A stretch of DNA of 58,303 bases from Candidatus Staskawiczbacteria bacterium RIFCSPHIGHO2_02_FULL_42_22 (lineage in GTDB: Bacteria > Patescibacteriota > Minisyncoccia > Minisyncoccales > Staskawiczbacteraceae), in contig MHOT01000018.1 of NCBI GenBank assembly GCA_001820175.1, forward strand, positions 15,401 to 73,703, written 5' to 3'. A program made the translations under genes and the position numbers. A model generated the notes under the pieces. It worked only from the letters and a program-made list of their open reading frames with translations, ran no database searches and was not told where the DNA came from. Positions 16,009-54,971 of this stretch are shown one piece after another; positions within the stretch are counted from its first letter, which is position 1; each line of letters opens with the position of its first letter.

Positions 16009-16285
16009 TAGACCTGTTGCGTATTAAGGATTTACTGCAAATTGCATATTTCGGCCACAAATTTGCTATACCTAGTATAATGTGTCGCTCGTTCGGAAAG
16101 GAATAATTGCGATTTTTCCTTTCCTCTCTCGCTTAGCACATTATAATTTTTCGGTCAAGATGTGGGTAAATTTGTAGCAACAAATTTCCCCATCTCCGGG
16201 CCTGGAGGCAAGCCGAAAAATTCTATCAAATTTCTGCCACAAAATCTTCAATTTTCGTAACAATCCTTAATACGCAACAGGTCTA
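16009..16285. mobile_element. Family A MITE-like palindromic element (277 bp; TIR TAGACCTGTTGCGTATTAAGGA)
   Basis: 22-bp perfect TIRs, no ORF, near-identical copies elsewhere in either orientation. Confidence 0.9.
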
Positions 16286-16348
16286 ATCTTTAAAATTAGA
16301 AGGCCTCGGCCTTCTTTTTTTTGCCTAATTTCGCCCGAGAAATTATTC

Positions 16349-16390
16349 ATTTTCCACAAATTTCCACGATCGTGGAAATTTGTGGAAAAT
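16349..16390. repeat. 42-bp perfect palindrome upstream of the PaaX-like gene
   Basis: ATTTTCCACAAATTTCCACGATCGTGGAAATTTGTGGAAAAT, ending 18 bp before the ATG. Confidence 0.95.
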
Positions 16391-16407
16391 AATGGTACAA
16401 TTTAAAT

Positions 16408-16998
16408 ATGAAAAAAACAAAACTCAGAAAAAAAATAAAAAGAGTCAAGAATACGAACAAAGAAACTCTGTCTAAAAAAATCTTATTATATCTTGGGGAA
16501 AAATCAAAAGAAATGTTAGATTTAAGCGTAAGGATTATGTTTGATTTTAAGAGTATTCGGTCGGAATTTGGAGTAAATTTGTATGGAAACTCTTATTATT
16601 TGCCTCGGGAATTTTATCGCTTAAAAAAGAGTCCTTATTTCTCTTATAGTCCTACCGAAGAAAAATTCTACCTTACAGAAAAGGGGCGCATTAAGATCAT
16701 AGAAAGTGTTCTAAGAAATAAAAAAATGAATCAAAAAAGGTGGGATGGTTTCTGGCGGGCGATTATTTTTGATATTCCCGAGGCAAGCCGAAACGACAGA
16801 GACTTTTTAAGAAAAGAATTGCGTTGGATTGGCTGCAAAGAAATACAAAAGAGCGTCTGGGTAACGCCTTTTGATTTTGAAAAGGAACTTATGGCAATTC
16901 TCACGTTATGGAAGCGGGATTTTAGAGGGAATATCCAATTTTTAAAAATAGAAAAAATATCTGGCGAAGAAGAAATAAAACAGTATTTTAACATATAG
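16408..16998 (+). CDS. PaaX-like / Cas2-like-fold putative regulator
   Basis: FYLTEKGR wing motif, then WDGFWRAIIFDIPEASRNDRDFLRKELRWIGCKEIQKSVWVTP, typical of PaaX C-terminal/Cas2-like CPR proteins. Confidence 0.8.
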   Translation: MKKTKLRKKIKRVKNTNKETLSKKILLYLGEKSKEMLDLSVRIMFDFKSIRSEFGVNLYGNSYYLPREFYRLKKSPYFSYSPTEEKFYLTEKGRIKIIESVLRNKKMNQKRWDGFWRAIIFDIPEASRNDRDFLRKELRWIGCKEIQKSVWVTPFDFEKELMAILTLWKRDFRGNIQFLKIEKISGEEEIKQYFNI

Positions 16999-17036
16999 CC
17001 ATAACTTCATTAATCTCGATTATTTTATTTAAATTT

Positions 17037-17078
17037 ATTTTCCACAAATTTCCACGATCGTGGAAATTTGTGGAAAAT
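17037..17078. repeat. 42-bp perfect palindrome downstream of the PaaX-like gene
   Basis: Identical to 16349-16390. Confidence 0.95.
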
Positions 17079-17242
17079 GGAAATTTCAGCGGCATTTCTT
17101 TTATCGCCCTCCGCATCTTTCTTTAGTGGATAGCCGTGGGTAGCATGGATAGATAGAAACGTATGCTAGAACGTATGATTGAAATAATACCTAAAAAAAT
17201 GTACAATCAAGTGCAACCATAAAACATGCGCAACTATAAAAT

Positions 17243-20122
17243 ATGAAACTCGATGTTATTAAAATTCGCGGGGCCAGGGTGCATAACTTAAAAAATATTG
17301 ACCTGGACATCCCCAAAAATAAATTGGTGGTGATTACCGGGCTTTCGGGCAGCGGTAAATCATCATTAGCATTTGATACGTTGTATGCCGAAGGCCAGAG
17401 GCGCTATGTGGAAAGTTTATCGGCTTATGCCCGGCAATTTTTGGGGGTTATGGATAAGCCCGACGTTGATAAAATAGAAGGCATCAGTCCGGCTATTTCT
17501 ATTGACCAGCGCAAGTCAGTGCACAATCCCCGTAGTACCGTGGGGACTACCACGGAAATTTATGACTACCTGCGGCTTTTGTTTGCGCGTATCGGCAAGC
17601 CCCATTGCCCGAATTGCGGCAAACTAATTTCAAAGCAAACCGTGGATCAAATTGTTGACCAGGTATTAACCATTAAAGAAGGCGCGGAAATTTCAATACT
17701 GGGCCCCGTTATACGAGGAAAAAAGGGTGAACACACCGCAGTTTTGCAAGAAATTCAGCGGGCGGGTTTTGTGCGGGTAAGAATTGATAAAGATATGTAT
17801 CTAATAGAAGAAGCACTGCAAAAGCTACTAGATAAGCAAAAAAAACATGACATTGAAGCCGTTGTTGATCGGTTGGTATTGGTAAATGACTTGGATAGGT
17901 CTCGGTTAGTGGATTCCCTGGAAACCGCTTTAAAGTTAGGAAAAGGCATTGTCATACTTAATACCCAATACAAACCACCTAATACTAAAATTAAATCAGA
18001 AGATTTAATTTTTAGCGAACACTTCGCCTGTGAGGATTGCGGCATTTCCCTGGCCGAACTTGAACCCCGCATGTTTTCGTTTAATAATCCGTATGGCGCT
18101 TGCCCCGAATGCACGGGTCTTGGAGAAAAATTGGAGGTTTCGGCTGACTTGGTTATGCCCAATAAAAATTTGACGCTGGCTGAAGGCGCTATTTTTGCCT
18201 GGTCGAATGCCAGCCATAAAGTGGGTCGGCAGGGGTATTATCATTGGAATCTTTCGGAATTGGCACGTGCATACCACTTTTCTTTAGATGTGCCGGTCAA
18301 GAATTTACCCCCAAAAATTATTGATATTATCTTGCATGGAGATAATGCGGGTTTTGAGGGAGTCATTGCAAACTTGGAAAGACGATACCATGAAACTGAT
18401 TCCGAATGGACGCGTCAGGAAATTGACCAGTATATGGTAATTAAACAGTGCCCCATGTGTCAGGGAAAACGATTAAAACCGGAAGTGCTGGCGATTACCG
18501 TAGCCAGTGTTTCTGTTGATGTTATTGTCAAGATGCCCGTCGATGATTTGCAGAAATTTTTTTCCGCCTTGCCGAAACAACTGAGTGCTAATGATGTAAA
18601 AATCAGCACGCCGATTACCAAAGAAATTAATGATCGGCTTCAATTTTTGGTTGATGTGGGACTCGGGTATTTGAATTTAGACAGAAAGGCGGTTACCTTA
18701 GCGGGGGGAGAAGAACAACGGATACGCCTGGCCACCCAAATTGGATCAAAATTATCCGGAGTGCTATATATTTTAGACGAACCGTCAATTGGATTGCACG
18801 CGCGCGACCAGCACCGGTTAATTCATACGTTATTGCAACTGCGCGATTTAGGAAACACGGTGATTGTGGTAGAACACGATCCACAGACCATGATGGCGTC
18901 GGATTGGATTGTGGATATTGGGCCCGGTGCCGGCAAGCACGGGGGACGAGTTATCTTCCAGGGAACACCAGGGGCACTCCTCAAATCTAATACATTGACC
19001 GGACAATATCTATCAGGGAGGAAAACAGTTTCTGGAGAGGTATTAAGTAGTAAGTATAAAGTATTAAGCAAAGGCCAAAAAGTTGGTTTAAATACTAAAT
19101 ACCCAATACCAAATACCAAATACTTAACCGTCAAGGGTGCCAAAGAGCATAATTTAAAAAACATTGATGTGGCTTTTCCTTTGGGTAAATTTATTTGTGT
19201 GACCGGTGTTTCGGGCAGCGGCAAGTCGTCGCTTGTAAATGACATTCTGGCCCGCGCATTGCTAAAGCAATTTTACCGAGCAAAAGATGAACCTGGAATG
19301 CATACAAAAATTACCGGAACCGAACACATTAATAAGGTGGTCTTGGTTGACCAGTCGCCCATTGGTCGGACTCCGCGGTCAAACCCCGCAACTTATACTG
19401 GCGCATTTTCATTTATTCGTGATATTTTTACCCAAACGAAAGAATCGCGGATTCGCGGATATTTAGCGGGCCGTTTTAGTTTTAATGTAAAAGGCGGCCG
19501 GTGCGAGGCCTGTGAAGGACAGGGTACCAAAAAAGTAGAAATGTATTTTTTGCCGGATATTTATGTAGAATGCGAGGAGTGTCGCGGTAAGCGTTACAGC
19601 AAGGAGGTGCTGGAAATTACTTATAAAGATAAAAATATTGCCGACGTGCTCAAAATGACCATTGAAGAAGCCGGTGAGTTTTTCGAACATATCCCGGGGG
19701 TGTACGATAAAATGAAAACGTTAAAAGAGGTGGGGCTTTCTTACGTTGAACTCGGCCAGGCGGCCACTTCACTGTCGGGCGGAGAGGCCCAGCGGATAAA
19801 ACTGGCTACCGAACTTTCACGCCGCGACACCGGTAACACATTATATATTTTAGATGAACCAACCACCGGTTTGCACTTTGAAGATATTAAGAAACTGATT
19901 TCAGTATTAAGAAATTTGGTCGATAAAGGAAATACAGTATTAGTTATTGAACACAATATTTCGCTTATTGCTGTTTCGGATTGGATTATAGATTTAGGGC
20001 CAGAGGGAGGAGAAAAAGGTGGCGGGATTGTTGTCGAGGGAATTCCACAAGATATTGCAAAAAATAAAAAATCTTATACTGCCAAATTCTTAAGAGATGT
20101 TTTTTTTGGCAAGATTATATAA
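17243..20122 (+). CDS. uvrA: Excinuclease ABC subunit A
   Basis: [10 protein letters not shown], two Walker A motifs (GLSGSGKSS; GVSGSGKSS), zinc fingers, [12 protein letters not shown] and [12 protein letters not shown] signatures. Confidence 0.98.
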
Positions 20123-21290
20123 TTCTGTTATTTCTTTTAATAATATTTTTTTCTGCTTTTTTTAAATCTCTTAATCTTTTTGAATGCTTTAATAAAGGTT
20201 TTAACATTTTCAATAATTTTAATAAAGGTTTCTTTTTGCTTATGTATAAGTACCAGTGGTTTTGCTTATACATGGTTCCATCGTTTTTGACGTGACCTTT
20301 TTTAACTCGAATTTTTGGCGGATTGCAAGGGATCCCTATTTCTAATAAATTCTTGTAAATATACCACAGGATGTTTTTATCGTAAGAAGCTAGCGTAAAA
20401 CCGGCAACATTGCTTTTTGCGATAAAGATAGCACCTTCTGCATCTGTGTAACCTGCTAAAAAAGATAAAAAGTGGGCCTTATTTTTTTTAACCCAATCGG
20501 GCATCGAATCTTTTTTCAATAAAAGGAAGTCGAAAGACCTATTTAATAAAACTGTAAAAACTCTGTTGTTATCTTCCCTTGCCTTACTTACCCATACATG
20601 GCCATATTTCTCAAACAATTTTTTAAATAAATGAATTTGTTGGATTTTTGTAGAGGTTGTGCTAATTACAATTAATTTTTTAGAGGGTAATAGTTTTGCA
20701 TAAAGATCCCCCAATTTAAAGCCGATTAGATAAGCTTTTTCATGTAAATCATTTGAGAAATCATATTTTTTATACTTAGTATGATAAAAATCAGCACTTC
20801 TAGTTTTTAATCCATAATCTTTCATTAATTTTGAGACATAGACATGGTGGGTATTAAGTTTTTTCGCAATTTGTTTTTGGGTTAATTTGTTCTTATAGTA
20901 AAGATTAACCAACACCGTCCTCTTTATTCTTTTTTCCTGCCAACCAAGCTTTATCGATTCCAATATTGTTCTAAGGGGAATATCTTGTTTGATCATTTCT
21001 CTCCTTATAGTTTCTCTAGAATAATGTAATTTTTTAGCAATGACAATGATAGATAATTTATCTTCAAGGTATAACTTCTTGAGAATTCCTTTTGGTATAG
21101 ATATTATTTTCTTTTGACTCGCTATTCTTACTGCTACTTTTTGTTTTCTTGGAGTAATACCAAATTTTTCCATTCTTTTGTTTATGGTGGTTATATTACA
21201 ATTTAATAGAGAAGCGATTTCTTTTCTAGAAAGAAGATTTTGATTATAGAGTTCCTCAAGAATTTTTTTAGAAATATCATTTCTTCTCAT
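20115..21290 (-). CDS. Free-standing LAGLIDADG-type endonuclease-like protein with N-terminal HTH repeats
   Basis: [12 protein letters not shown] and [14 protein letters not shown] motifs; three L.xLY...LS..xIA..L units in the N-terminal half. Confidence 0.8.
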
Positions 21291-21378
21291 AGCTTTATTG
21301 TAACATAATACAGAGTTAATAAAAATAGTATAAAGTATTATTTATTTTAACCGGCGCTGTTTTTTAACTCCCTGATTT

Positions 21379-21461
21379 CGTCATTGCGAGAAGTCCCGAG
21401 CCGCAGCGAGGGGCGACGAAGCAATCTAAAAGTGGAGGAGATTGCTTCGGTTGCGGCCTCG
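21379..21461. repeat. Family D palindrome, right arm truncated
   Basis: CGTCATTGCGAG...GCGACGAAGCAATCT...AGATTGCTTCGG...CCTCG. Confidence 0.85.
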
Positions 21462-21475
21462 AAAAGCGATATCTA

Positions 21476-21504
21476 TTGACAAAGGTTTTTAAATTTTATA
21501 GATT
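21476..21504 (+). promoter_or_regulatory. sigma70-type promoter of groES-groEL
   Basis: TTGACA-17 bp-TAGATT. Confidence 0.6.
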
Positions 21505-21617
21505 GTAGTATCTTAACGAATTTTTAATTTCCAAATTTTTAATTTTTAAATAATGCGTTAATGTTTAAATTTTGAGAAATTAAGAAATTATTTACAAAAT
21601 TAAAAATTACAAAAATT

Positions 21618-21908
21618 ATGATAATAAAACCCCTTGCAGATCACATTTTAATAGAACCCATTAAGGAAGAAGAAAAAACCAAGTCGGGAATTTTTTTGCC
21701 CGACACCGCTCAAAAAGAAAAACCCGAACAAGGGTTGGTTATTGCCGTGGGCCAGGGCAGGAAAACCGATGATGGAAAAATAGTTCCCGTGTCGGTAAAA
21801 GCAGGGGACAAAGTGCTGTTTACCAAGTACGGCCCCAATGAAATAAAAATTGATGGGAAAGAATATTTAATTGCCCAAGAAAGCGATATTCTAGCAATTA
21901 TTGAATAA
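21618..21908 (+). CDS. groES: Co-chaperonin GroES
   Basis: IKPLADHILIEP, KTKSGIFLPDTAQKEKPEQGLVIAVG, ESDILAII. Confidence 0.98.
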   Translation: MIIKPLADHILIEPIKEEEKTKSGIFLPDTAQKEKPEQGLVIAVGQGRKTDDGKIVPVSVKAGDKVLFTKYGPNEIKIDGKEYLIAQESDILAIIE

Positions 21909-21912
21909 GGAA

Positions 21913-22020
21913 TGCGATGCTAATATACTAATTCATACTAATCATACCAATACGATACTAATCCGTCGTGCGTAGACTTTTATTAGTATTATTAGTATGC
22001 ATTCGTATATTGGCATCGCA
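21913..22020. repeat. Family F (ATACTAA-unit) palindrome between groES and groEL
   Basis: TGCGATGCTAATAT...ATATTGGCATCGCA; inverted relative at 36389-36477. Confidence 0.85.
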
Positions 22021-22024
22021 CTAA

Positions 22025-23668
<1,644 letters not shown>

Positions 23669-23719
23669 GGTCAGTAGGTACTGGGTAGTGAGTAGTTGGT
23701 AGTGAGTAGAAAAAAATAG

Positions 23720-23752
23720 AAAAAATCTTCCTTGATTCAAGGAAGATTTTTT
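23720..23752 (+). terminator. Intrinsic (likely bidirectional) terminator after groEL
   Basis: AAAAAATCTTCCTTGA-T-TCAAGGAAGATTTTTT. Confidence 0.8.
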
Positions 23753-23808
23753 GTTACATTAAGTGCAGAGTATAAGCAGCCCTTTGTAAAATATCCAGGA
23801 GGCGACCT

Positions 23809-24279
23809 ATGGCTAAGGAAATTCTTGGTTTGGGTATACGGGGCATTATTGCTTCAAGTATGTGCGATGACCAAGGGAAATATGAGGAAATTCCTGGTGC
23901 TTTTAAAATGTTGGCAAGGTTGCAACGGGAGAGATTTTCTGAAGGCATCTTTCTTGTTTCTTATGCCTGGGGGGAAACGCATCCAAAAATACTTCATTGG
24001 TTGTTTGATCATATATTCCATAAAGTAACCGGTATACCGGCTGGTAATGTTTACCTATTTCGTCACAAGGTTCAAGAAGTCGCAATCTGCCGCGAATTAG
24101 AAATTACCCATTTTATTTCCGATAGCACAGAACTTCTCGTAGCCCTTAATGACGCAGGTATAGAAAATCTATATCTTTTTCATGGGCCTGATCAAGAGCA
24201 GTCCTGTTCTGGAAGTATCTTGCGCCATGTCACGCAGGTTACCTCTTGGCAGGAAATTGCCAAAAACCTGCTTGGTTAG
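23809..24279 (+). CDS. HAD-fold-like hypothetical protein, catalytic motifs degenerate
   Basis: Resembles HAD-like proteins (PGAF..L..L, FLVS, WL, ICRELEITHFI), but the DxD and DD positions read GLG and SD. Confidence 0.55.
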   Translation: MAKEILGLGIRGIIASSMCDDQGKYEEIPGAFKMLARLQRERFSEGIFLVSYAWGETHPKILHWLFDHIFHKVTGIPAGNVYLFRHKVQEVAICRELEITHFISDSTELLVALNDAGIENLYLFHGPDQEQSCSGSILRHVTQVTSWQEIAKNLLG

Positions 24280-24479
24280 CCCTCTATGTCCGATGCTTTG
24301 CACCGGACTTTTTTTACTTACCCTTGTTTTTGCGTTAATTTTTAGGTAGAATGAAGTTGAATTTAAAAACCTAAATTTAAAATTCAAAAACAATTTAAAA
24401 GCACTAATTTAAAAACACGTTTTGAAATTTGATATTTAAAATTGTTTTTAAATTTATCATTTTAAATTTTAAATTCACT

Positions 24480-25013
24480 ATGTTCTGTCCTAACCATCAT
24501 AAAAATCCCTTAGAAAAGGTTTTATTCCATCACGTTGAGGTTGACTATTGCCCCGAGTGTCTTGGGGTCTGGTTTGATAAAGACGAATTGCGCCTGGCCA
24601 AAGATGATAATGATGCCAATCTTCAATGGCTCGATTTTGATATTTGGCGGGACAAGGGAAAATTTGCCGTGATGCGAATTGATAAGCGCTGTCCGGTGTG
24701 CAGAATTCCTTTTATGGAAGTAAACTACGACGACTCAAAGGTGAAGATTGATTTTTGCAAACGTTGCCAGGGGATTTGGCTGGACCGCGGGGAATTCAAG
24801 CAAATCATGATGTATTTGATACGAAAATCCGATTACGAATTACTGCACCAATATGCCAAGAATTTAGTAGTACAGTTATGGGAGGTGTTTTCAGGGCCCG
24901 AAAAATTCAGGGAAGAATTAGAGGATTTTCTTATATTATTAAAATTATTTAATTATAAATTTGTGGTGCAACATCCGCATATTAATAGTTTAATTGAGGA
25001 GTTACCAAAGTAA
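24480..25013 (+). CDS. Double zf-TFIIB-type zinc-ribbon protein
   Basis: CPNH..VDYCPECLGVWFDKDEL and CPVC..IDFCKRCQGIWLDRGEF. Confidence 0.85.
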   Translation: MFCPNHHKNPLEKVLFHHVEVDYCPECLGVWFDKDELRLAKDDNDANLQWLDFDIWRDKGKFAVMRIDKRCPVCRIPFMEVNYDDSKVKIDFCKRCQGIWLDRGEFKQIMMYLIRKSDYELLHQYAKNLVVQLWEVFSGPEKFREELEDFLILLKLFNYKFVVQHPHINSLIEELPK

Positions 25014-32908: not shown

Positions 32909-32998
32909 GTCATTGCGAGGAGCCCTAAGCCGCGCCGAAGGGCGACGAAGCAATCTAAAGTTGTCAGGGGATTGCTTCGGTTGTGACCTCGCAATGAC
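32909..32998. repeat. Family D palindrome
   Basis: GTCATTGCGAGG...CCTCGCAATGAC. Confidence 0.92.
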
Positions 32999-36679: not shown

Positions 36680-36954
36680 ACCTGTTGCGTATTAAGGATT
36701 GTCGCGAAAATTACAGATTTTGAGCTGGAAATTTGATAGAATTTTTCGGCTTGCCCTCTGGGCCCGGAGATGGGGAAATTTGTTGCTACAAATTTACCCA
36801 CATCTTGACCGAAAAATTATAATTTGCTAAGCGAGAGAGAAAAAGAAGAATAGCAATTATTCTTTTTCGAACGAGCGACAAATTATACTAGGTATAGCAA
36901 ATTTCTGGCCAAAATATGCAATTTGCAGCAAATCCTTAATACGCAACAGGTCTA
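36677..36954. mobile_element. Family A element (278 bp), opposite orientation to the 16009 copy
   Basis: Same TIRs and internal modules. Confidence 0.9.
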
Positions 36955-36960: not shown

Positions 36961-37090
36961 CCCGCGGAAATCCGCGGAAATTAACGCAGAACCGCGCGGA
37001 AAGATTCCGCGTTATTCCGGAGACGGAGCGAATTGGTTGTGACCAATTACGCTTCGCGTCTTAACGTAATATTCCGCATAATTCTGCGAT
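36961..37090. repeat. Family G (CGCGGAA-unit) palindrome carrying the 45-bp hairpin module at 37020-37064
   Basis: CGCGGAAA units left, TTCCGC units right; module visible inside. Confidence 0.8.
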
Positions 37091-40867: not shown

Positions 40868-41144
40868 TAGACCTGTTGCGTATTAAGGATTGTCGCGAAA
40901 ATTGAAGATTTTGGATCAGAAATTTGATAGAATTTTTCGGCTTGCCCATAGGCCCGGAGATGGGGAAATTTGTTGCTACAAATTTGCCCACATCTTGACC
41001 GAAAAATTATAATGTGCTAAGCGAGAGAGAAAAAGAAGAATATCAATTATTCTTTTTCGAACGAGCGACACATTATACTAGGTATAGCAAATTTCTGGCC
41101 AAAATATGCAATTTGCAGTAAATCCTTAATACGCAACAGGTCTA
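40868..41144. mobile_element. Family A element (277 bp) between dnaG and rpoD
   Basis: TIRs and modules as above. Confidence 0.9.
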
Positions 41145-46290: not shown

Positions 46291-46369
46291 AATAAAAATA
46301 ATACCTTATTTTTTGAAAAATAGCCAGCCCTAATTTGGCGACGTCAGACGTCGCCAAAGCGTCGCCAAA

Positions 46370-46742
46370 GTAACCCCGCGCGTCCCGTCATTGCGAGGAA
46401 TGCGTATAGAACAAACATTATCACTTTGCACTAAAGTCGCCGGCGGTTTGGCAATATTGGGCGGATTGGAGCAAAAAATATGTTTGGCGTAGCCGTAGCT
46501 ACGGCAAACATATTTTTTGTGAAAACTGCCCAAGATTGGCAAAGCCGCCAAGACCTTGGAGTGCAAAGTGATAATGTTTGTTCTATAGATGACGAAGCAA
46601 TCTCTGGATGAAATGACGAGATTGCCGCGTCGCCCTTCGCTGTCCAGACGCGAGGCGCAATTTATCGCAACAAATTCGCCCCGTCTCTAGCTCAGGGCTC
46701 CTTGCAATGACGGTGGTGAAAAAGGAAGGTGTGAGGGGTTAC
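46370..46742. repeat. Composite: GTAACCCC shell containing a family D palindrome, itself containing a family C element and the 45-bp module
   Basis: See the nested-element finding. Confidence 0.85.
46405..46587. mobile_element. Family C element (TIR TATAGAACAAACATTATCACTTTGCACT), 183 bp
   Basis: 28-bp perfect TIR; longer inverted copy at 52932-53235. Confidence 0.9.
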
Positions 46743-46753
46743 TCGCCAAATAA

Positions 46754-46864
46754 TTGACTATTTGTAATTAATATGGTAAATTACTGATAGTTCTTTTACC
46801 CTACCTCATAGTTCAGTCATAACCAAAAGCCCTTTGCATTGCCGAGGATTTCTGGCTATGACTG
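46754..46864 (+). promoter_or_regulatory. Promoter, boxA-like motif and leader hairpin
   Basis: TTGACT-17-TAAATT (TG extension), GTTCTTTTAC at 46790-46799, hairpin at 46814-46864. Confidence 0.55.
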
Positions 46865-46908
46865 CTACTTTGGAGCAAGCACTCTCTTTACAGGAAAGGG
46901 ATGACGCC

Positions 46909-47520
46909 ATGACCAAGATCATGATCGCATCGCAACCGATGACCGACGGTCAGATGGAGAATCTGGTCGACAAGTTCCGCGCCGCGGTGCGCAGGCATCG
47001 TGCGGAGTTTTCGCTCGATGCCGTCCAACAGGTTCTTGGAATCGAGAACCTTGGCATGGAGTGCCTGGCTCCTTTCCGTGCACGCGTGGAGGCGATCAGC
47101 AACCTGATTGTCCGCCGCGTCACCGTCAACCGCACCTGCACTCCACAGGAGGCAATCGACGCCACCGGCCGCACGCAGTACACCGACCGCACGATCGTGG
47201 ACGCCATGCCCCGCGGCGAAGGCGAAGAGACGGAGGTCATCTTCTTCAACCTTGGCCGCTATGTCAGCGACGACAACCTCGACAAGGAGTACGAACTGTG
47301 CGGCCTCATACCCGCCGATCCGTACTCGCTCGCGGCCGTCAACGAAGCCGACCCGACCTTCGCGGACGATCACCCCAATGCCACTCACTGGAAAGATTCC
47401 AGTGGCAAGTGGTGTTACGCCGCTTTCGACCGCTTCGACGATGACGAGCGCGGCGTGTTCGTCAGCCGTAGCGGCGACGGTTGGCATGACGCCTGGTGGT
47501 TCGCCGGCCTTCGCAAGTAA
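46909..47520 (+). CDS. GC-rich hypothetical protein
   Basis: AGGAAAGGG SD before ATG 46909; strongly C/G-ending codons; terminator at ~47587-47628. Confidence 0.8.
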   Translation: MTKIMIASQPMTDGQMENLVDKFRAAVRRHRAEFSLDAVQQVLGIENLGMECLAPFRARVEAISNLIVRRVTVNRTCTPQEAIDATGRTQYTDRTIVDAMPRGEGEETEVIFFNLGRYVSDDNLDKEYELCGLIPADPYSLAAVNEADPTFADDHPNATHWKDSSGKWCYAAFDRFDDDERGVFVSRSGDGWHDAWWFAGLRK

Positions 47521-47801
47521 GTTCTTGGTGCTTAGAACCTTGGGTTGTTTGACCCTTGGGAACTTTGCACTTTGAATCGTCGTTTTAAACCCCGCATTTG
47601 CGTTTGCAAATGCGGGGGTATTTTTTTGTACTATTTTTTTAATGTAGTATAATAATACTAAATCCGAAATCCGAATAGGAACAAGTTCGGCTCCGGCCAC
47701 GAAATTCGAAACAATTCGCCAGCTGGCGAACGAATTTTCAAAATCCAAATTTTCAAAATATGTTTAGAATTTAGAGTTTAGGATTTAGGATTTCATACAT
47801 T

Positions 47802-48086
47802 ATGGACACTACCATTATTACCAATATTTTGTTTTCACTGCTCAGTATTTTTATAATACTTATTATTATTGTTTTTTTGATGGCAATAGTATATGCTATT
47901 AAAATTGCTAAGCGGCTCCAGGAAATTTTGTCCATTATTAAAGAAGAAACAGAAAAAATTACCCATGACGTTGATGCGGTTCGTGAAAGAATAAAAAACG
48001 GCGGCAGCCAGTTTGTTTCGTTTGTGTCGTACCTGTGGTCGTTTTTTAATAAAAGTAACAAAAAAAGTCGAAAAAACAATAAATAG
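47802..48086 (+). CDS. Hypothetical membrane protein (TM + coiled coil)
   Basis: Long hydrophobic N-terminus, then amphipathic helix. Confidence 0.7.
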   Translation: MDTTIITNILFSLLSIFIILIIIVFLMAIVYAIKIAKRLQEILSIIKEETEKITHDVDAVRERIKNGGSQFVSFVSYLWSFFNKSNKKSRKNNK

Positions 48087-48177
48087 CGATCCGAATTATC
48101 CGAATCCGCATCCGAATGTTCCGAATAGCGTTACCGTATTAGGATCATTCGGATGATATTCGTAAATTAGGATTGCA
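48085..48177. repeat. Family E palindrome
   Basis: AGCGATCCGAAT-type heptamer arms like 33584-33712. Confidence 0.75.
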
Positions 48178-48183
48178 TAATAC

Positions 48184-48549
48184 ATGCAAAAGAAAAATAA
48201 TTTAGTTAAGGATGTGGTGATTGGAGCGGGGATTGCAGCAGCGGTAGCTGCAGCTGCGGGCGTGTATTTTTTGTACGGTTCAAAAAATGCCGCGAAAAAT
48301 CGTAAAATGGTAAAGGGTTGGATGTTGAAAGCCAAGGGCGAAGTATTGGAGAAACTGGAAAATGTAAAAGAGGTAAATGAAGAAATTTACCACAAAATCA
48401 TAGACCAGGTGTCAAAGAAGTACCAGGCAATGAAAAGCGTTGACCGCAAGGATATTGCCGAATTTGTCCGCGAATTGAAGAGCCATTGGCAGGGCCTTGC
48501 TAAGGAAATTGCGGCCTTCCATAAAGCAAAGAGCAAAGGGAAAAAGTAA
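48184..48549 (+). CDS. YtxH-like hypothetical protein
   Basis: GAGIAAAVAAAAGVYFLYG followed by a Lys/Glu-rich helical region. Confidence 0.7.
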   Translation: MQKKNNLVKDVVIGAGIAAAVAAAAGVYFLYGSKNAAKNRKMVKGWMLKAKGEVLEKLENVKEVNEEIYHKIIDQVSKKYQAMKSVDRKDIAEFVRELKSHWQGLAKEIAAFHKAKSKGKK

Positions 48550-48555
48550 TCTTGT

Positions 48556-48598
48556 AATAAAAAATCGCTCTTCGACTTCGCTCAGAGCGATTTTTTAT
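48556..48598. terminator. Bidirectional terminator
   Basis: AATAAAAAATCGCTC-loop-GAGCGATTTTTTATT between convergent genes. Confidence 0.85.
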
Positions 48599-48978
48599 TA
48601 CAAGATTACTTTTTTAAATTGCTTTCTTATTGCCCTATAGTTTGGCATAGATTTGGCGACTATGTTCCAAAAATGAGGGGAGTGATTAAATTCTCCCAAG
48701 TGGCACAGTTCATGCAGGATAACGTAGTCCGATAATTTCTGGGGTAGTAGGGCGATTTTATAGTTAAAATTTAAGTTCCCTTTTTTAGAACAGCTACCCC
48801 AGCGGCTTTTTTGGTTTTTAATGGTAATTTTATTTACCTTAAATTGATAGAAGGTATTGAAATAGGTAATGCGGTTTTTTGCAAGTTCCATGGCTTCATT
48901 TTTGTAGCGGAGAAATTCGACACGGTTGCCCTTTTTTCTTTTTACTTTTACTCTGCGCCAAACGATTTTATATTTCAT
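48598..48978 (-). CDS. YgjP/DUF45-like metallopeptidase (short)
   Basis: KSRWGSCS, LNFN, DYVILHELCHL..FNHS..FW. Confidence 0.88.
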   Translation of the reverse strand: MKYKIVWRRVKVKRKKGNRVEFLRYKNEAMELAKNRITYFNTFYQFKVNKITIKNQKSRWGSCSKKGNLNFNYKIALLPQKLSDYVILHELCHLGEFNHSPHFWNIVAKSMPNYRAIRKQFKKVIL

Positions 48979-49098
48979 TAAAATCAACTATACCATAAAA
49001 TTCGCGGTCGCGAATTTTATGGTATCAGTGCACTAGTGACAATATTCTAAAAATATCATACGATGAGACAGGTTCTTTAACCTATCAAGGAGGTGGTT

Positions 49099-49839
49099 AT
49101 GCGCCAGTCGGTCAAGCGTGCGGTCCTTAGGCAGTTGAAAAAACGAGAAAAGAAAACCCTTATTAATGCCGATCGCATAAACCAATTTACAGTACTCATT
49201 CCAATGGGCCACAGAAAATATCGGTGGTCGGCCCGGCCAGAAAAATTGTATGGAGATGCCAGAAATATTCGGGGTGATGCTTCAAAGATCTGGGGTGATT
49301 GTTCTCATATTTCTGGCAATGTTTCCGAAATTAGGGGTAATGTGAGCCGTATCCGGGGAGATGTTACCAATCTTTCCGGAGATGTAAGCCGCTTATTTGG
49401 CGATGTCACCGATATACACGGAGATGTTACCAATCTTTCGGGAGACGCCAGTGGATTATGGGGAGACGTCACGCGGCTCCGGGGAAACATCACCGCTATC
49501 ATTGGAGATGTAAGCAACCTCCGAGGCGATTGTTCAGGAATTGAGGGCGATATCTCTAAAATTACCGGAGATTTGTCGGGAATTTTAGGGGATTTTTCCC
49601 ACATCACCGGCGATGTCACCAATATTTACGGTGATGTAACTCACATCCAGGGAGATGTTTCCTGTATTTCTGGCGATGTTTCAGGGCTGCGAGGCAACAT
49701 TTCTTCTATTTGCGGTGATGTCACCAAGATTTGGGGAGATGTTTCAGGTATTAAAGGTGACGTTTCGGAAATTTGCGGCGACATGACGGGAATTAAGGCA
49801 ATCGCCCAAGAAATACTGCTGGTGCTTCAGAATCGTTAA
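49099..49839 (+). CDS. Heptad-repeat protein, 26 x G[DN]xxxxx
   Basis: AAGGAGGT SD; perfectly phased 7-aa units at 49252-49797. Confidence 0.85.
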   Translation: MRQSVKRAVLRQLKKREKKTLINADRINQFTVLIPMGHRKYRWSARPEKLYGDARNIRGDASKIWGDCSHISGNVSEIRGNVSRIRGDVTNLSGDVSRLFGDVTDIHGDVTNLSGDASGLWGDVTRLRGNITAIIGDVSNLRGDCSGIEGDISKITGDLSGILGDFSHITGDVTNIYGDVTHIQGDVSCISGDVSGLRGNISSICGDVTKIWGDVSGIKGDVSEICGDMTGIKAIAQEILLVLQNR

Positions 49840-49938
49840 TGCAACTGTTTGACTGAGGTGTTCAAACGCCTATCATCAGGGCCCTTTGGTTTGCCAAGGG
49901 GTCTTTTTTAAATTCACTGCGACCTGAACTTGGGCGCG

Positions 49939-50334
49939 CTATATTTCCATTACCAAACTTGCTATTAGGACTGCCAAAGATAGTATAAATATAAATGCAG
50001 AGTTAAATCGTGCCTTAGAGGTGAGGGTGGTTTTAGTTAAATACACCAGAGCTAATTTTTTATCTTCTTCTATATCGCTTGCTCGCAGCGCTTGAACTAA
50101 TCGAAGGTTTTTTACCAGGTTAGCTCTTTTTGTTTCAATGTGGGTCCGGTGGCCGAAGTATAAAACAAATCCAATGGTTCCGATATACCAGGCCACTTTA
50201 ATTCAAAAGGGATCCAGTAAAAAAATAATCCGGTAGGCGATGGTGGCTGCGAGGCCAGATAAAAAGAAAAACCAGCGCCAAAAAGGGGCGCTCGCCTCAA
50301 TTTTTTCCCCTGCGGTATCTTTTTTTGATTTCAT
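49939..50334 (-). pseudogene. Membrane-protein gene interrupted by one in-frame TGA (codon 44)
   Basis: Single frame from ATG 50334: ...GLAATIAYRIIFLLDPF*IKVAWYIGTIGFVLYFGHR...; stop at 50203-50205. Confidence 0.6.
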
Positions 50335-51034
50335 TTTTTGAACGTAAATAATATTTTCTTTTTTGGGGTGAGAATTTTTCAATGGCGTAACGCAGCATCG
50401 TTCTTGGCATGCTCCGGTAGTGTTTATTTAAAAACATTATTTCCGTTTTTGGTGAGCGTTTTCCTACTTCGCGCAACATCCATCCGGTTGCTTTGTGGAT
50501 TAAATCATGTTGGTCACCAAGCAAAATGTTTGCAATTTTTAAGGTTTCGTTAAATTTGTTTTTCTTGATGAAATGAAATGTTGCAACGATTGCCATTCTC
50601 CGTTCCCATAGATTTTTTGACCGCGCCATCTTTAAAAGTATTTTTTTGCTTCTACCAAAAAAACAATCCCCCAATATATATTCTGCTGAAGTATCAACCA
50701 GATCCCAGTTATTAACGCATTTTTTATTTTTCAGATAAGAATGAACAATTTCTTTTTTAATTTTTTGGTCGCCCTTTTCATATTTGGCGACCAGAATTTC
50801 AAGGCCCACAAATCGGTATTCGTGAATAGGGCTTTTTAGTAGTTTCTCAACATCGTTTAAGGGTAAAGACACAAATGCATGAGATATGTTTCGCTGCACA
50901 GGAACCGTAATGCCTAAAAATATATCGCCGTAACCGTACTGGCCCTCGCCGGTCTTAAAAAACCGCGACGAAGTTTTAGCCCTCTTGGGATCAGCCAATT
51001 TTTTAAGCTCATCAATTAATGCTTTTATTTTCAT
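50297..51034 (-). CDS. AlkD-like DNA alkylation repair protein
   Basis: FFKTG.GQYG.GD.FLGITVP, NNWDLVD, LWERRMAIV, DLIHKA.GWMLREVGK, MPRTMLRYAIEK. Confidence 0.9.
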   Translation of the reverse strand: MKIKALIDELKKLADPKRAKTSSRFFKTGEGQYGYGDIFLGITVPVQRNISHAFVSLPLNDVEKLLKSPIHEYRFVGLEILVAKYEKGDQKIKKEIVHSYLKNKKCVNNWDLVDTSAEYILGDCFFGRSKKILLKMARSKNLWERRMAIVATFHFIKKNKFNETLKIANILLGDQHDLIHKATGWMLREVGKRSPKTEIMFLNKHYRSMPRTMLRYAIEKFSPQKRKYYLRSKNEIKKRYRRGKN

Positions 51035-51077
51035 ATGGTTGAATTGTTTAAAAATATCCTAAACCAAAAAATCTTCG

Positions 51078-52187
51078 TTACCTGGTAGTTTCTTTAAGCT
51101 CGATTTTTTCTTTTACCCTCTTTACCTGGAATGTTATTCTGCCCAGCACTTGTCCGCGTTCATTTTCCACGTATATTCGCCACGCCCCCGCTTCCAGGTC
51201 GCTTTCAAAAGAATATCCCTTGTAACCCTCTTTCCGTCCGCCGACAATGGCAAATGACAGCAATCCTCGGTCTACCCAGTCCTTTTTGATTGGGTCGTAA
51301 TATTGCCAATGGTGAACGATGGTAGTTTGCAATTTTGCGGGAGCAAAAATAGCCGTGTATAAATATATTTTTTCGCCCGACTTTGTGTGTACCGTTTGGC
51401 CGGGAATCAATCGTTGCCATAACGTTTCCGGTTCGCCTTGCATAATGTAAGATCCGCGGGAAACCATGATGCCATGGTAAAGCCCTGCTTCCCTAAGCGA
51501 TAGGGGAATTGGCGGAATAATGTTGGTAAAATATAATACATTCATTAATAGTAAGACGGCAAAAATTCCAATGAGCATTTTTTGTTTTACGCGCCTTTCT
51601 TTTATTGGCAGCAAAAACACAATAAATGGGTAAAAAATACCAATGCTCAAAACGCCGGCCAAAAGGAAAACCCAGGACCCAAGCGAGTTAAACATAAACG
51701 GCAGCATCAAAGAAAGCAACGACAGGGTGGTAAAAAAATAAATGCCGATTTGGATGATCGGATTTAAAAAATAATGCCGGAAAATATCGTTTGATGCCAT
51801 TAGCACCACCACAATAGTGATAATCGGCCAACTGACCGACAGGGTTCCGGAAAGCCAGTAGAAAACCAGGGAACTTCCCAGGAGCGCGCCGAAGGTAAAT
51901 TGGATTGCCAGGGGGGCAAACAGCCGGAGGTACTTTAATTTTTGAGGCAGTGCGCCGGCATCAAAGAAGTGTATAAAAACAATGGTGGCACCTAAAACCA
52001 GCCAGTATAGCAGAAGTAGAGCAAAAGTAGTGGTGAGGCGAATACTGGTAAAGGTGAAATAATCAATCAAAAAACCCACCACCAAAGTGACTGGCATCAG
52101 CAACCTTTCGTAGCGCATATAAAAGGATTTAATTTGCCGGTAGTGCGATGAAAAATCTAAGAGTCGTTGCATATGATTCAAATTCAT
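51078..52187 (-). CDS. Multi-TM protein with a C-terminal DUF2914-like domain
   Basis: About 7 hydrophobic helices; YTAIFAP..L.T.I.H.W, GGRKEGYKGYS, GAWRIYVENERGQVLGR. Confidence 0.8.
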   Translation of the reverse strand: MNLNHMQRLLDFSSHYRQIKSFYMRYERLLMPVTLVVGFLIDYFTFTSIRLTTTFALLLLYWLVLGATIVFIHFFDAGALPQKLKYLRLFAPLAIQFTFGALLGSSLVFYWLSGTLSVSWPIITIVVVLMASNDIFRHYFLNPIIQIGIYFFTTLSLLSLMLPFMFNSLGSWVFLLAGVLSIGIFYPFIVFLLPIKERRVKQKMLIGIFAVLLLMNVLYFTNIIPPIPLSLREAGLYHGIMVSRGSYIMQGEPETLWQRLIPGQTVHTKSGEKIYLYTAIFAPAKLQTTIVHHWQYYDPIKKDWVDRGLLSFAIVGGRKEGYKGYSFESDLEAGAWRIYVENERGQVLGRITFQVKRVKEKIELKETTR

Positions 52188-52210
52188 TATACCAAATAAA
52201 ATTTAAACAA

Positions 52211-52370
52211 TAGACCTGTTGCGTATTAAGGATTGTTACGAAAATTGAAGATTTTGAGCCAGAAATTTGATAGAATTTTTCGGCTTGCCTCCAGGCCCGC
52301 CGAAAAATTATAGCAAATTTCTGGCCGAAATATGCAATTTGCAGTAAATCCTTAATACGCAACAGGTCTA
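52211..52370. mobile_element. Family A short form (160 bp; lacks both internal modules)
   Basis: Same TIRs; equals the long form minus the 42-bp and 75-bp inserts. Confidence 0.9.
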
Positions 52371-52417
52371 ATAAAAATACCTGCAAAAATATAAAATATC
52401 TTTGCAGGTACTGGTTA

Positions 52418-52840
52418 TTAGTGGGTCGTTGCTATTTTGGCGCGGCGCTGTCTTTGATAGCATACCCAACAAAGCGGTGGATGAGATGTTGTAATAATCT
52501 TCGTCTTTTTGCACTGGTTGCAACATCCAACCCTACTTTTGTTGTGGCAGTTCGAGCAGATGGGACCGTCTTCAGTCCGCTTTCGCACTTGCTTGACCTC
52601 CTTGCACCGAGAGCACTGCTCGCGTTTGGAAGGGTCCTTGTTGTAGCAGTTCGAGCAGACGGGACCATCTTTAGTCCGCTCCGCCACTCGCTTGACCTCC
52701 TTGCACCGAGAGCACTGCTCGCGTTTGGAAGGATCGTGGTAACGATCCTTGTCGTAGCAGCTCGGGCAGATCAATTTTTTGGTCTTGCGACTGCGATGAA
52801 CGGTTTTCCATTTCTTGCAAACATTGCAAATGTCCAGCAT
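52418..52840 (-). CDS. Cys-rich repeat (multi zinc-finger-like) protein
   Basis: Eight CxxC motifs; 99-bp tandem duplication; AGAGGAGGT SD. Confidence 0.8.
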   Translation of the reverse strand: MLDICNVCKKWKTVHRSRKTKKLICPSCYDKDRYHDPSKREQCSRCKEVKRVAERTKDGPVCSNCYNKDPSKREQCSRCKEVKQVRKRTEDGPICSNCHNKSRVGCCNQCKKTKIITTSHPPLCWVCYQRQRRAKIATTH

Positions 52841-52931
52841 TTATCACCTCCTCTTGGTTGAAGTTTTGTGAAAGAACGAGTTGATCAATGTTACTTTAAA
52901 CTATTATTTATTATTTGTCAAAAAACGGTGG

Positions 52932-53235
52932 TATAGAACAAACATTATCACTTCGCACTCCAATTCTTGACGGATTTGCCAATCTTGGGCAGTTTTCGCA
53001 AAAAATATGTTTGCCGTAGCTACGGCTACGCCAAACATATTTTTTGGAGACGGGGCGAATTTGTTGTGACAAATTACGCCTCGCGTCTTGACTCCAAGCC
53101 GCCCAATATTCGAGGATAGCGAAGGGAGTAAATATGCCGCAGTATATTTACTCCCAAGCGACGCAGAATATATGCTTATCATATATTGCCAAACCGCCGG
53201 CGACTTTAGTGCAAAGTGATAATGTTTGTTCTATA
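52932..53235. mobile_element. Family C long form (304 bp) with two inserted hairpin modules
   Basis: Inverted copy of 46405-46587 plus inserts at 53047-53091 and 53111-53187. Confidence 0.9.
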
Positions 53236-53264
53236 GATTCCGTGTCAATCTTTTGTAAAGTTTA

Positions 53265-53430
53265 ACGAGATTGCTTCGTCGCCCTTCGCTGTCCAGACAC
53301 GAGGCGTAATTTGTCGCAACAAATTTAACCGTCTCTGGCTCAGGGCTCTAAAGTCGCGAGATTTTTCTCGCCTTTCGGGCGGGAAAAATCTGGCGACTTT
53401 ACGTAATGACGGTGGGGCGCGAGGGGTTAC
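53265..53430. repeat. Family D right arm with two inserted modules and GGGGTTAC shell end
   Basis: Modules at 53292-53335 and 53349-53401. Confidence 0.8.
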
Positions 53431-53476
53431 AAATTAAAAAATTGATATCATGCAATAAAAATTGTACAATGAACAC

Positions 53477-54646
53477 ATGAAAATAGAAAACATCTCTTTG
53501 GGGATATGGATACCCCGGGCATCAATGCATCTAAAAGAAATGTATCACTTTTTCAGTGGAGAAAAGATGCCGATCGCGGGTCTTGGCGCCCAGAAATTAG
53601 CAAAATTAAGAGAATCATTGGGAATTATAAAAGTTGATTTTATCACCAAGGCCGAGTTTGACGAAGTCCATGTGCTATGCCAAGCGATCTATATTACCAT
53701 ATCGTCAGAAGGGACCATTATTTTGCAATTAAGGAAAGATGACAAAGGGGATTTGGCTTTTGAAAATGCGGCAATGCTCGAGCATTTTTTTATTGAAAAA
53801 CTTTCTCCGGCGGTTAATTATCTTTTTAGTTTGGGGGCGCCTTTGCCCAAGGAATTGCAGAATATACGAGAGGCGTATCCCACCATTGTCATCGTAAAAG
53901 ATGCTTTTGAACAAGAACTAAATCAATTTATTAAAACCCAAAAGATTGAAATCTATTCCAGGGATATTTCTGAAAAATTGGATTTCTTTTTCGGGGAAAA
54001 AACTAGCATTATTAATGTGAAGCATGACGCGGTTCCTAAAGATATTTTGCTGCAAGAGATGATATTTCTAAAGGAATTTCCCATGCAGCTTAAAAATTAC
54101 CTTGCGGTACACCGGATGGTATGGGAAAAAGTAGATAACATCAGGGAAGTAAAAAGCATTGCATACAAGGATTTTACCCGCATCAGGGAGCAAATGAACG
54201 GTTTCCTAAAAACACTTTCACTCATGAAAGCCCGACTGGCGCAAATGGAGGATATTATAGAAACCAAAAAGGAAATAAACAATGCGATGTCTCAAGAAGG
54301 GTTGAAAGATATCAATATCCATAGAATTAATAATTTCATCGGGGACGTCAAATATGTTAAGGATTTATGGGAAATGACCATTGACTATGTCAAAGATACT
54401 TTAAATTTGATAGAATCAGTGTCGCGAGAAAATATCCAGCGAGAACTGAGCGCATTGAAGTTCGTTGCCTTAATCGGCGCCATTACCAGTTTCTTTGGCA
54501 TGAATATTGCATTTCCCTGGGAAGACCGTTGGGATGCGATTTTTTTGAGTTCCCTGGCCGTCATTGGTATTATTATTTTTGTTTCATTTACCTTCTATTA
54601 TTTTTTAAAGATATTTATTTACAACAGAAAATTTAACATGAAGTAG
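53477..54646 (+). CDS. CorA-like divalent cation transporter (divergent)
   Basis: Long helical region followed by two C-terminal TMs with the GMN signature (FFGMNI). Confidence 0.6.
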   Translation: MKIENISLGIWIPRASMHLKEMYHFFSGEKMPIAGLGAQKLAKLRESLGIIKVDFITKAEFDEVHVLCQAIYITISSEGTIILQLRKDDKGDLAFENAAMLEHFFIEKLSPAVNYLFSLGAPLPKELQNIREAYPTIVIVKDAFEQELNQFIKTQKIEIYSRDISEKLDFFFGEKTSIINVKHDAVPKDILLQEMIFLKEFPMQLKNYLAVHRMVWEKVDNIREVKSIAYKDFTRIREQMNGFLKTLSLMKARLAQMEDIIETKKEINNAMSQEGLKDINIHRINNFIGDVKYVKDLWEMTIDYVKDTLNLIESVSRENIQRELSALKFVALIGAITSFFGMNIAFPWEDRWDAIFLSSLAVIGIIIFVSFTFYYFLKIFIYNRKFNMK

Positions 54647-54650
54647 ATAT

Positions 54651-54971
54651 TAGACCTGTTGCGTATTAAGGATTTGCTCGAGACGCGAGGGTTACCGGCT
54701 CAGCCGGAACCCCCGTCTGTAGCAAATTGCATATTTTGGCCAGAAATTTGCTATACCTAGTATAATGTGTCGCTCGTTCGGAAAGGAATAATTGCGATTT
54801 TTCCTTTCCTCTCTCGCTTAGCACATTATAATTTTTCGGTCAAGATGTGGGTAAATTTGTAGCAACAAATTTCCCCATCTCCGGGCCCTCTAGGCAAGCC
54901 GAAAAATTCTATCAAATTTCTGATCCAAAATCTTCAATTTTCGTAACAATCCTTAATACGCAACAGGTCTA
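54651..54971. mobile_element. Family A element (321 bp) with an extra 43-bp hairpin
   Basis: Long form plus insert at ~54678-54721. Confidence 0.9.

Follow-up and report, generated by a model that had tools for sequence, protein, structure and literature searches.

A 42- to 45-nt hairpin module inserted without target duplication into unrelated palindromic repeats of a Candidatus Staskawiczbacteria genome

The IS200/IS605 insertion sequences (IS), which move by single-strand 'peel and paste' next to a fixed tetra- or pentanucleotide on whose 3' side they insert, have imperfect hairpins with bulged bases as recognition sites. The attC sites of integrons, folded bottom-strand hairpins that a tyrosine recombinase reads, have conserved paired boxes at the foot, one arm with extrahelical bases and a terminal part that varies freely in sequence and length; insertion takes place at G^ without duplication. 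An attC site closes each gene cassette, and the cassettes form arrays beside intI. Among the repetitive extragenic palindromic (REP) elements, those of the 'CGTC' class are apparently without a dedicated transposase and at times lie inside longer palindromes (PMC3733652). The small dispersed repeats (SDRs) SDR4-6 of the Nostocaceae are modules of 21-27 nt that are precisely inserted into short palindromes and nested in other repeats, SDR5 sitting between bases 3 and 4 of HIP1 (PMC4390886, PMC5861425); no SDR-like repeat is described outside the Nostocaceae (PMC5861425). Here we describe a hairpin module of 42-45 nt from a 58,303-nt stretch (the window, along whose whole length coordinates marked 'window' are counted) that is part of contig C18 of Candidatus Staskawiczbacteria bacterium RIFCSPHIGHO2_02_FULL_42_22, a groundwater member of the candidate phyla radiation (CPR) represented by a metagenome-assembled genome (MAG) of 0.82 Mb in 30 contigs that is 95% complete (the source genome, G000). 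The module is a discrete unit inserted exactly and without duplication into many unrelated hosts; it is patchy across bacterial families and has no linked gene. Other genomes compared carry labels such as G013, G216 and G279, and L-numbers denote loci taken from such genomes.

In the way it works, the module most resembles the REP/REPIN elements, particularly the 'CGTC' REPs, and it also resembles the SDRs; rRNA intervening sequences are a third close analogue. It has in common with the systems of REPs, REPINs and REP-associated tyrosine transposases (RAYTs) that they are short, intergenic, high-copy hairpins with no reported target duplication and with compensatory change (PMC3116915). CGTC at the foot of its stem is a possible parallel to the CGTC-tagged REPs; the stem-loop layout is different from that of CGTC REP families 1-4, which have stems of 8-9 bp starting with AT and loops of 4-5 nt (PMC3733652). 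The CGTC of the module lies within the paired outer stem (CGTCT) instead of forming an unpaired tag, and covariation changes it to CATCT, CGTCC and CGACC. The module also differs from REP/REPIN elements in having no GTAG tag, no doublet organisation and no flanking or co-occurring RAYT, in its conserved shell with a swappable inner hairpin and in its occurrence in CPR bacteria. Membership in the REP/REPIN-RAYT system was rejected on the grounds that neither the source genome nor G013 contains a cognate RAYT and that RAYT-like loci are flanked by other hairpins. As far as secondary descriptions allow the comparison, SDRs are likewise very small, enter palindromes precisely and are nested in repeats; they differ in belonging to another phylum and in having no sequence relation to the module, which is about twice their size.

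Exact filled and empty paralogues were identified in the source genome for six host repeat families, with the insertion point (^) as follows:

Host A: AATTTTTCGG^CGGGCC (also given as TTTTTCGG^CGGGCC)
Host C: GGCTTGGAG^CAAAAAAT
Host D: CCCTTCGCTG^CGGCTCAGG; some empty sites read ^TGGCTC
Host E: GCCACGCCTG^CGGGCTCGCAATGACG (short form CGCCTG^CGGGCTCGC)
Host G: CGGAATnTTACG^CGGAAT (short form TTACG^CGGAAT)
Host I: GTTTAGG^CGTAGC

For each of the six hosts, the longest common prefix and the longest common suffix together equal the empty sequence exactly, so that the parse is unique and there is no target duplication, in agreement with what a sequence-only reading of the window had proposed. Genome-wide, host A is represented by ~19-24 empty and 13 filled sites and host C by ~25 empty and 6 filled sites. 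The insert has the form [T/G]NN-AGACG...CGTCT-C and is 45 nt long in the main type; in the A-hosted type it is 42 nt long, and its outer stem has become AGATG/CATCT by compensatory change. In all six families the module enters at G^C(G), the base at -1 being G. The 5' three bases differ by host (TCA, TCC, GCC, TTA, GCA and others), and no carry-over of donor flank beyond ~3 nt was seen. The junction rule of G before and CG after also holds for metagenome copies and for five further families in the class: in other lineages, G precedes the three variable bases and CG follows …GTCTC. A further unrelated host family, 'TTTGG^AGAAAAGAC', was seen in other species.

The nine copies that the sequence-only reading had recognised are all present where it placed them and were all refound by a covariance model of the module (R1, whose E-values are rough). 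These copies, two copies of a sibling module (M2) and the empty sites are located in the window as follows:

16155..16196, + strand: module of A-type (TCAAGATGTGGGTAAATTTGTAGCAACAAATTTCCCCATCTC), 'long A' host, flanked by TTTTTCGG and CGGGCC (R1, filled/empty parse)
36767..36808, - strand: module, A-type, in a 'long A' host (R1)
40957..40998, - strand: module, A-type with one substitution, in a 'long A' host (R1)
54840..54881, + strand: module, A-type, in a 'long A' host (R1)
53047..53091, - strand: module, main type, 45 nt, in host C at CTTGGAG^CAAAAAAT (R1, empty-site parse)
46643..46687, + strand: module, main type, in host D at CGCTG^(C/T)GGCTC (R1, empty-site parse)
53292..53335, + strand: module, main type with slight decay, 44 nt, in host D (R1, empty-site parse)
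37020..37064, - strand: module, main type with two compensatory pair changes, between units of a tandem array of CGCGGAAT type (host G), 34 nt upstream of the next open reading frame (ORF) (R1)
54679..54721, + strand: inner-swapped copy, main shell with another inner hairpin (CGAGACGCGAGGGTTACCGGCTCAGCCGGAACCCCCGTCTGTA), in a host A element, within its left arm, at GGATTTGCT^GCAAATT (prefix and suffix parse uniquely against empty copies of A)
58086..58133, + strand: sibling module M2, outer stem AGTCG/CGACT, inner hairpin CCCGCCCGAAAGGCGGG, at CGTCATTGCG^AGGA
58284..58303, + strand: second copy of M2 type, start only, at CGTCATTGCG^, cut by the window end
52294..52309, - strand: empty site, host A (AATTTTTCGG^CGGGCC)
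57909..57924, - strand: empty site, host A
46463..46478, + strand: empty site, host C (GGATTGGAG^CAAAAAA)
32924..32937, - strand: empty site, D-type host (CGGCG^CGGCTTAGG)

That the window holds empty sites is thus confirmed, with A at 52294 and 57909, C at 46463 and the D type at 32924, and many more exist genome-wide. The earlier count of four unrelated hosts is a little generous with respect to D: A, C, G, I and D/E are mutually unrelated, while D proved to be related to the newly found host E, with which it shares the outer shell GAGATTGC…CTCGCAATGACG. The loop-swapped variant placed at ~54678-54721 is present as well; its R1 match is 54678-54719 (+), and the prefix/suffix parse gives 54679-54721, CGAGACG...CGTCTGTA against the empty site GGATTTGCT^GCAAATT, so that its ends differ from those of the main type. 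In the source genome as a whole, a hidden Markov model scan gave 43 clear copies and R1 gave 50 matches, with matches in related genomes too.

The module is under selection for pairing. Among 17 distinct copies from the source genome, 5 of the 16 pairs are changed on both sides, and among 40 distinct copies from ten genomes of the genus this number rises to 12 of 16, with 98.6% of cells paired; the 40-copy alignment was fitted to the model and therefore favours structure, but the margin is large, as slid controls of the same alignment had 30-46% pairing. None of 500 shuffled controls of the 40-copy alignment reached the observed covariation by any of five measures. The compensatory pairs named from the window alone are real, and the proposal of a discrete micro-element selected for its structure is borne out by the exact insertions together with the covariation. 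G-U pairs are rare in the module, which fits pairing on both strands or in DNA. When folded as DNA, the main type, the A-type, M2 and a 31-nt short form adopted one architecture: an outer stem of 5 bp (AGACG/CGTCT in the conserved shell), a 5' arm with two single bulged bases (in the conserved shell, the C and the A of CGCGAGG), a short GC stem and a variable inner hairpin.

The invariant portion of this fold can be written as an exact shell pattern, AGACGCGAGG-N16-34-CCCCGTCTC, with two bulged bases, that encloses the swappable inner hairpin. In metagenome contigs, many of them from groundwater, this pattern matched more than 117 stretches, ~55-60 of them true hairpins and the rest chance matches. 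Among 48 metagenome contexts, 42 different inner segments were enclosed by an identical 19-nt shell; since the pattern fixed the shell, its conservation there is by construction, and the unbiased parts of the result are the patchiness at class level and the covariation at genus level. M2, which reads TAAAGTCGCGAGA…CCCGCCCGAAAGGCGGG…TCCCGACTC (also given as ending in CCCGACTC), has the shell architecture of the main module. It is present in ~10-12 copies (window 58086-58133, 58284-58303 and ~53348-53400; G000 contigs C1, C12, C13, C16, C19, C21 and C27), every one of them at CGTCATTGCG^AGGAG of a D/E host, and its insertion point is uninterrupted in many D/E copies, the window alone containing eight such empty targets. 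Short forms of 30-31 nt (GCCAGACGCGAGGCGCGAAGCGCCCCGTCTC; G000 C17:7192-7222 and L073:4898-4927) consist of the shell with almost no inner hairpin, which suggests that the inner hairpin is itself an add-on. That the 19-nt shell is identical across families and patchy in its occurrence would point to horizontal transfer and to recognition of the shell by a protein.

Much of the copy number of the module is hitch-hiking on the amplification of host repeats. Host A resembles a miniature inverted-repeat transposable element (MITE) of ~170 nt with terminal inverted repeats TAGACCTGTTGCG… or TAGACCTGTCCCT… (also given as TAGACCTGTTGCGTATTAAGGATT… or TAGACCTGTCCCTAAATAAGATTT…) and has 39 copies genome-wide, one of them at window ~52211-52370. 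Its 'long A' subfamily, which carries an extra ~70-nt block, accounts for 10 filled copies and 1 empty copy; of the 'short A' copies, three with differing terminal-repeat subtypes are filled with an identical 42-mer and ~24 are empty. The suggestion that the four A-hosted copies of the window go back to a single event does not agree with filled states in both 'long A' (10) and three 'short A' copies of different subfamilies, which imply several gains at one site, precise loss or gene conversion. We estimate about 8-12 independent insertion events in the source genome.

All 43 copies are intergenic, the apparent overlaps being with spurious ORFs of ~100 aa that run through repeats in the ORF map of the source genome, a crude longest-ORF call. 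The coding density of this genome by the same call is only ~81%, and its intergenic DNA comprises several interlocking palindromic repeat families that also yield such spurious ORFs. The copies are dispersed singly, not in tandem. Relative to flanking co-directional genes, 13 are in sense and 19 in antisense orientation; there is no bias, which argues against a terminator-like RNA role. With respect to the target, G is at -1 in 24 of 27 independent contexts, usually followed by C/T-G after the junction. The idea that the module targets other hairpins stands in part: the junction lies in the apical loop of a strong palindrome in ~10 of the 27 contexts, including a 23S rRNA loop, but pairing across the junction is overall only modestly above controls (at least four junction-spanning pairs in 16 of 27 contexts, or 59%, against 42% for random and 54% for shifted positions) and some insertion sites are not palindromic. 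Hairpin-apex targeting was set aside because its enrichment over controls is only modest.

Across the class, the exact shell was identified in 10 of 401 sampled genomes. These represent 9 genera in 6 families, and the inner hairpin is a different one in each; the reversed pattern, used as a control, had 0 matches. The full R1 model was positive for 14 of 25 members of the genus, which carry between 1 and 50 copies, and for 0 of 16 other families of the order. Besides the source genome, the richest carrier is G013 with 21 copies; the seven copies in G279, a 98% complete genome, include four that are identical. When 185,579 species genomes were scanned with an exact pattern, the matches were only MAGs of Candidatus Staskawiczbacteria and MAGs of the same genus auto-named 'uncultured Saccharibacteria', and the sole near-identical metagenome contig came from the source genome's own source metagenome. 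A narrow pattern had 0 matches in IMG/VR, leaving carriage by phages unsupported. In G216, a member of another family, a 45-nt shell unit occupies the apical loop of a 23S rRNA hairpin (L224, G216:C4:98420-99060, positions ~295-340), and cmscan of this rRNA placed an insertion of 45 nt at a loop of which the model has only a 2-nt remainder. The same 23S rRNA gene also contains a ~120-nt insert of short-word repeats near position 583 of the large-subunit (LSU) model. Searched against Rfam 15, the whole window gave one tRNA only, and a permissive search of 52950-53420 gave only sub-threshold microRNA look-alikes, on other hairpins. No description of such repeats was found in the CPR literature.

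Insertions in rRNA genes are frequent in CPR bacteria and are mostly intron-like, often encoding LAGLIDADG endonucleases (PMC11270868). The shell unit of G216 is comparable to these in extending an apical loop of 23S rRNA, but the module is 45 nt long, has no gene and is otherwise intergenic. Staskawiczbacteria also contain TIGR arrays (tigRNA), which are tandem units with box C/D motifs beside a tas gene (bioRxiv 10.64898/2026.09.09.750476); the module was set apart from these by its dispersed, non-tandem copies and by having no box C/D in its sequence. With the IS200/IS605 family the module shares the lack of target duplication and an orientation-specific insertion next to a short motif, but members of that family have two subterminal hairpins plus tnpA and/or tnpB, whereas the module has one hairpin and no gene. 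Membership in IS200/IS605 was rejected for the single hairpin, for a flank in which G at -1 is the sole constant base and the right side is mostly CG, and for the absence of Y1 from the main carriers. The layout of attC, with its foot boxes, extrahelical bases and variable terminal structure, appears strikingly similar to that of the module. Against an assignment to attC, the copies are dispersed singly without cassettes or arrays, RYYYAAC/GTTRRRY boxes are absent and each genome has one Xer-like gene of the integrase family. A MITE of a DDE transposon was likewise rejected, there being no target duplication and no parent element with the same ends.

The lack of a target duplication had led to the proposal that an HUH enzyme (IS200/IS605 TnpA or a RAYT) moves the module, a proposal that the searches do not support. 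In the source genome and G013, the two richest carriers, a search with PF01797 (Y1) had 0 matches, and tblastn with ten RAYT-like proteins of the genus found nothing; a weak recurrent RAYT-like match at C8:14201-14356 proved to be a 2H-phosphoesterase (LigT-like) gene. Of 26 genomes of the genus, 16 contain RAYT-like genes of 230-255 aa. Every such gene lies between short REP hairpins of its own, several of which have (C/T)AGACGT...ACGTCT(G/A) stems that resemble the outer stem of the module. These Y1 genes (motifs YHI..RG and NHIHLL) are at L052, L053, L056, L058, L061, L064, L065, L067, L070 and L071, with REP hairpins such as CAGACGTTTAACGTCTG, TAGACGTCCAACGTCTA and GGAGGTCTGACCTCC, and appear to form RAYT/REP units of the classical layout in CPR bacteria. 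Searches to 3 kb around 24 Y1 genes (127 kb in total) gave no R1 match at E<=1, and within the genus the presence of the module and that of Y1 are not associated (10/14 versus 6/11, Fisher p = 0.43). Across the class, Y1 was found in 4 of 10 shell-bearing genomes and in 16 of 18 matched controls (p = 0.011); this inverse trend is probably a lineage effect and gives no positive link between module and Y1. G279 has no Y1 gene. No RAYT was found in 476 kb around metagenome copies, and clustering of the 224 ORFs within 2.5 kb of 60 metagenome copies revealed no recurrent gene family. The mover is thus probably not a Y1 HUH transposase encoded in these genomes, although HUH-like single-strand chemistry would remain a reasonable analogy.

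Other candidates were considered as well. A parent element with module ends was rejected: wherever a 5' or 3' arm occurs in the genome it is part of a complete module, and no two arms flank a gene. A tyrosine recombinase is uninformative as a candidate, exactly one Xer-like gene being present in every genome tested. Reverse transcriptase (RT) genes of the type found in diversity-generating retroelements (DGRs) occur in nearly all genomes, with or without the module. In G013, three of four DGR-type RT genes have a shell module within ~1 kb (L072:3157-3201, L073:4898-4927 and L074:4759-4801), one of these modules being enclosed in a perfect, GC-rich palindrome that comes directly after the gene for an Avd-like four-helix bundle; modules near RT genes were not seen in G000, G018 or G021, and the pattern of G013 was treated as regional clustering. 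Of the multi-copy proteins considered (a PaaX/Cas2-like family, four-helix-bundle proteins of the intervening-sequence (IVS) type and a large serine recombinase), none is linked to modules. The PaaX/Cas2-like family has five paralogues (window 16408-16998; G000 C12:36638, C16:25980, C21:173 and C23:14338), and the perfect palindrome AAAAGTAGACGGCCGTCTACTTTT adjoins the copy on C21. The gene for the large serine recombinase (551 aa, G000 C13:2388-4043) is ~1 kb from a C-hosted module. In the window itself, the housekeeping genes uvrA, groEL, dnaG and rpoD are present; one ORF of 4625 aa takes up a quarter of its length (window 1713-15590), and a 391-aa protein with several helix-turn-helix domains and LAGLIDADG_3 is encoded at window 20115-21290 by a free-standing, homing-endonuclease-like gene.

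Taken with some reserve, the probable nature of the module is that of a selfish, non-autonomous hairpin element of 42-45 nt that is recognised via its folded shell and inserted into exposed single strands; we infer that the moving form is a folded single strand and that a protein reads the shell. Under this mechanism a trans-acting protein would recognise the folded shell and move the module as a discrete unit, with the shell as its functional part, in which the outer stem AGACG/CGTCT may covary, and with an inner hairpin that would be free in both sequence and length. The module would enter wherever single-stranded DNA is exposed, frequently at the centre of a second palindrome or in its loop. 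The target would be G^C(G), with a single orientation of the module towards this motif and no target duplication, and copy number would climb mainly through multiplication of the host repeat together with recurrent hits or gene conversion at one host site. Several observations weigh against such an element. No mobilising enzyme was found, and the obvious class, Y1 HUH, shows neither co-occurrence nor linkage with the module; the enrichment of insertion sites at hairpin apices is only modest over controls; the 5' three bases and the 3' base vary among subfamilies, the ends being less uniform than those of a classical transposon; the ends of one variant are reversed relative to the internal bulges; and most copies in one host family may share one insertion, which would leave ~8-12 events, not 43.

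Among the alternatives, we regard it as unlikely that the module is the REP-like partner of a Y1 HUH transposase that acts in trans, was recently lost or resides on an unbinned replicon. Such an enzyme would account for the absence of target duplication, the bulged hairpin and an orientation fixed relative to a short target, and RAYT-like genes do occur in 16 of 26 genomes of the genus beside REP stems that resemble the module's outer stem; set against this are the negative PF01797 and RAYT tblastn searches of G013 and of a source genome that is 95% complete, the 24 Y1 genes without a module within 3 kb, the lack of association in the genus (p = 0.43), the 4 of 10 carriers with Y1 compared with 16 of 18 controls, the four identical copies in a G279 without Y1, the 476 kb around metagenome copies without a RAYT and the missing GTAG tag. 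A functional cis-element, such as a hairpin for the processing or stability of RNA or a DNA site to which a protein binds, that is kept by the host and spread by recombination or gene conversion seems quite improbable to us. The distribution of the module, found in just 10 of the 401 class genomes and, at 1 to 50 copies, in 14 of the 25 genus members, is difficult to reconcile with such a role, as are its placement inside unrelated repeats and not beside particular genes, its two orientations relative to transcription despite bulges that make the strands differ, and the lack of an Rfam family match, even though pairing is under strong selection, the unpaired bases are invariant, all copies are intergenic and one lies in 23S rRNA, where hairpin extensions are tolerated or processed. 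Conversion could explain identical copies within host families but would be unable to transfer the module among unrelated hosts.

A route that dispenses with a dedicated enzyme, in which palindromes extruded in replication are cut at their loops or close to them and template switching at short homologies copies the hairpin, with G/CG as the microhomology, has in our judgement little likelihood. It draws on the G to the left and CG(G/A) to the right that most hosts share, on the many sites that are palindrome centres, on 5' three bases that vary like filler and on the failure to find an enzyme. It has difficulty with the exact 3' end, …GTCTC in all main-type events across six bacterial families, and with the lack of donor-flank carry-over beyond ~3 nt, and the combination of a strict 19-nt shell with a free interior points to recognition of the shell, not to copying of arbitrary hairpins. 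That the module is an artefact of assembly or binning is exceedingly improbable: the source genome is a 30-contig MAG and one contig is identical to a contig of the source metagenome, but the element and its junction rule recur in MAGs and contigs from many independent projects and families, and copies lie inside long contigs between ordinary genes.

More speculatively, the shell hairpins could form a class-wide family of the smallest known autonomous-looking bacterial mobile units, moved not by their own transposase but by a housekeeping or as yet unrecognised enzyme that acts on folded single strands, and able to enter any exposed hairpin loop, including those of rRNA; we advance this possibility tentatively. 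If it is true, there would be a concrete origin for gene-less intervening sequences in rRNA and for the Russian-doll palindromes of CPR intergenic DNA. CPR genomes of less than 1 Mb are assumed to be streamlined, yet in the source genome nested, apparently selfish hairpins number in the dozens, and a transposase for them is not recognisable. The module may connect three phenomena, namely RAYT-less REP-like repeats of the 'CGTC' class, the SDRs of cyanobacteria and hairpin insertions in rRNA. As a practical matter, the shell is a simple annotation marker in MAGs, where repeats can break assemblies and create spurious ORFs. With 45 nt, exact ends, a 19-nt shell common to several bacterial families and an exchangeable interior, the module is a tractable system in which a new route of moving DNA, or the host enzyme that is exploited, may be found.

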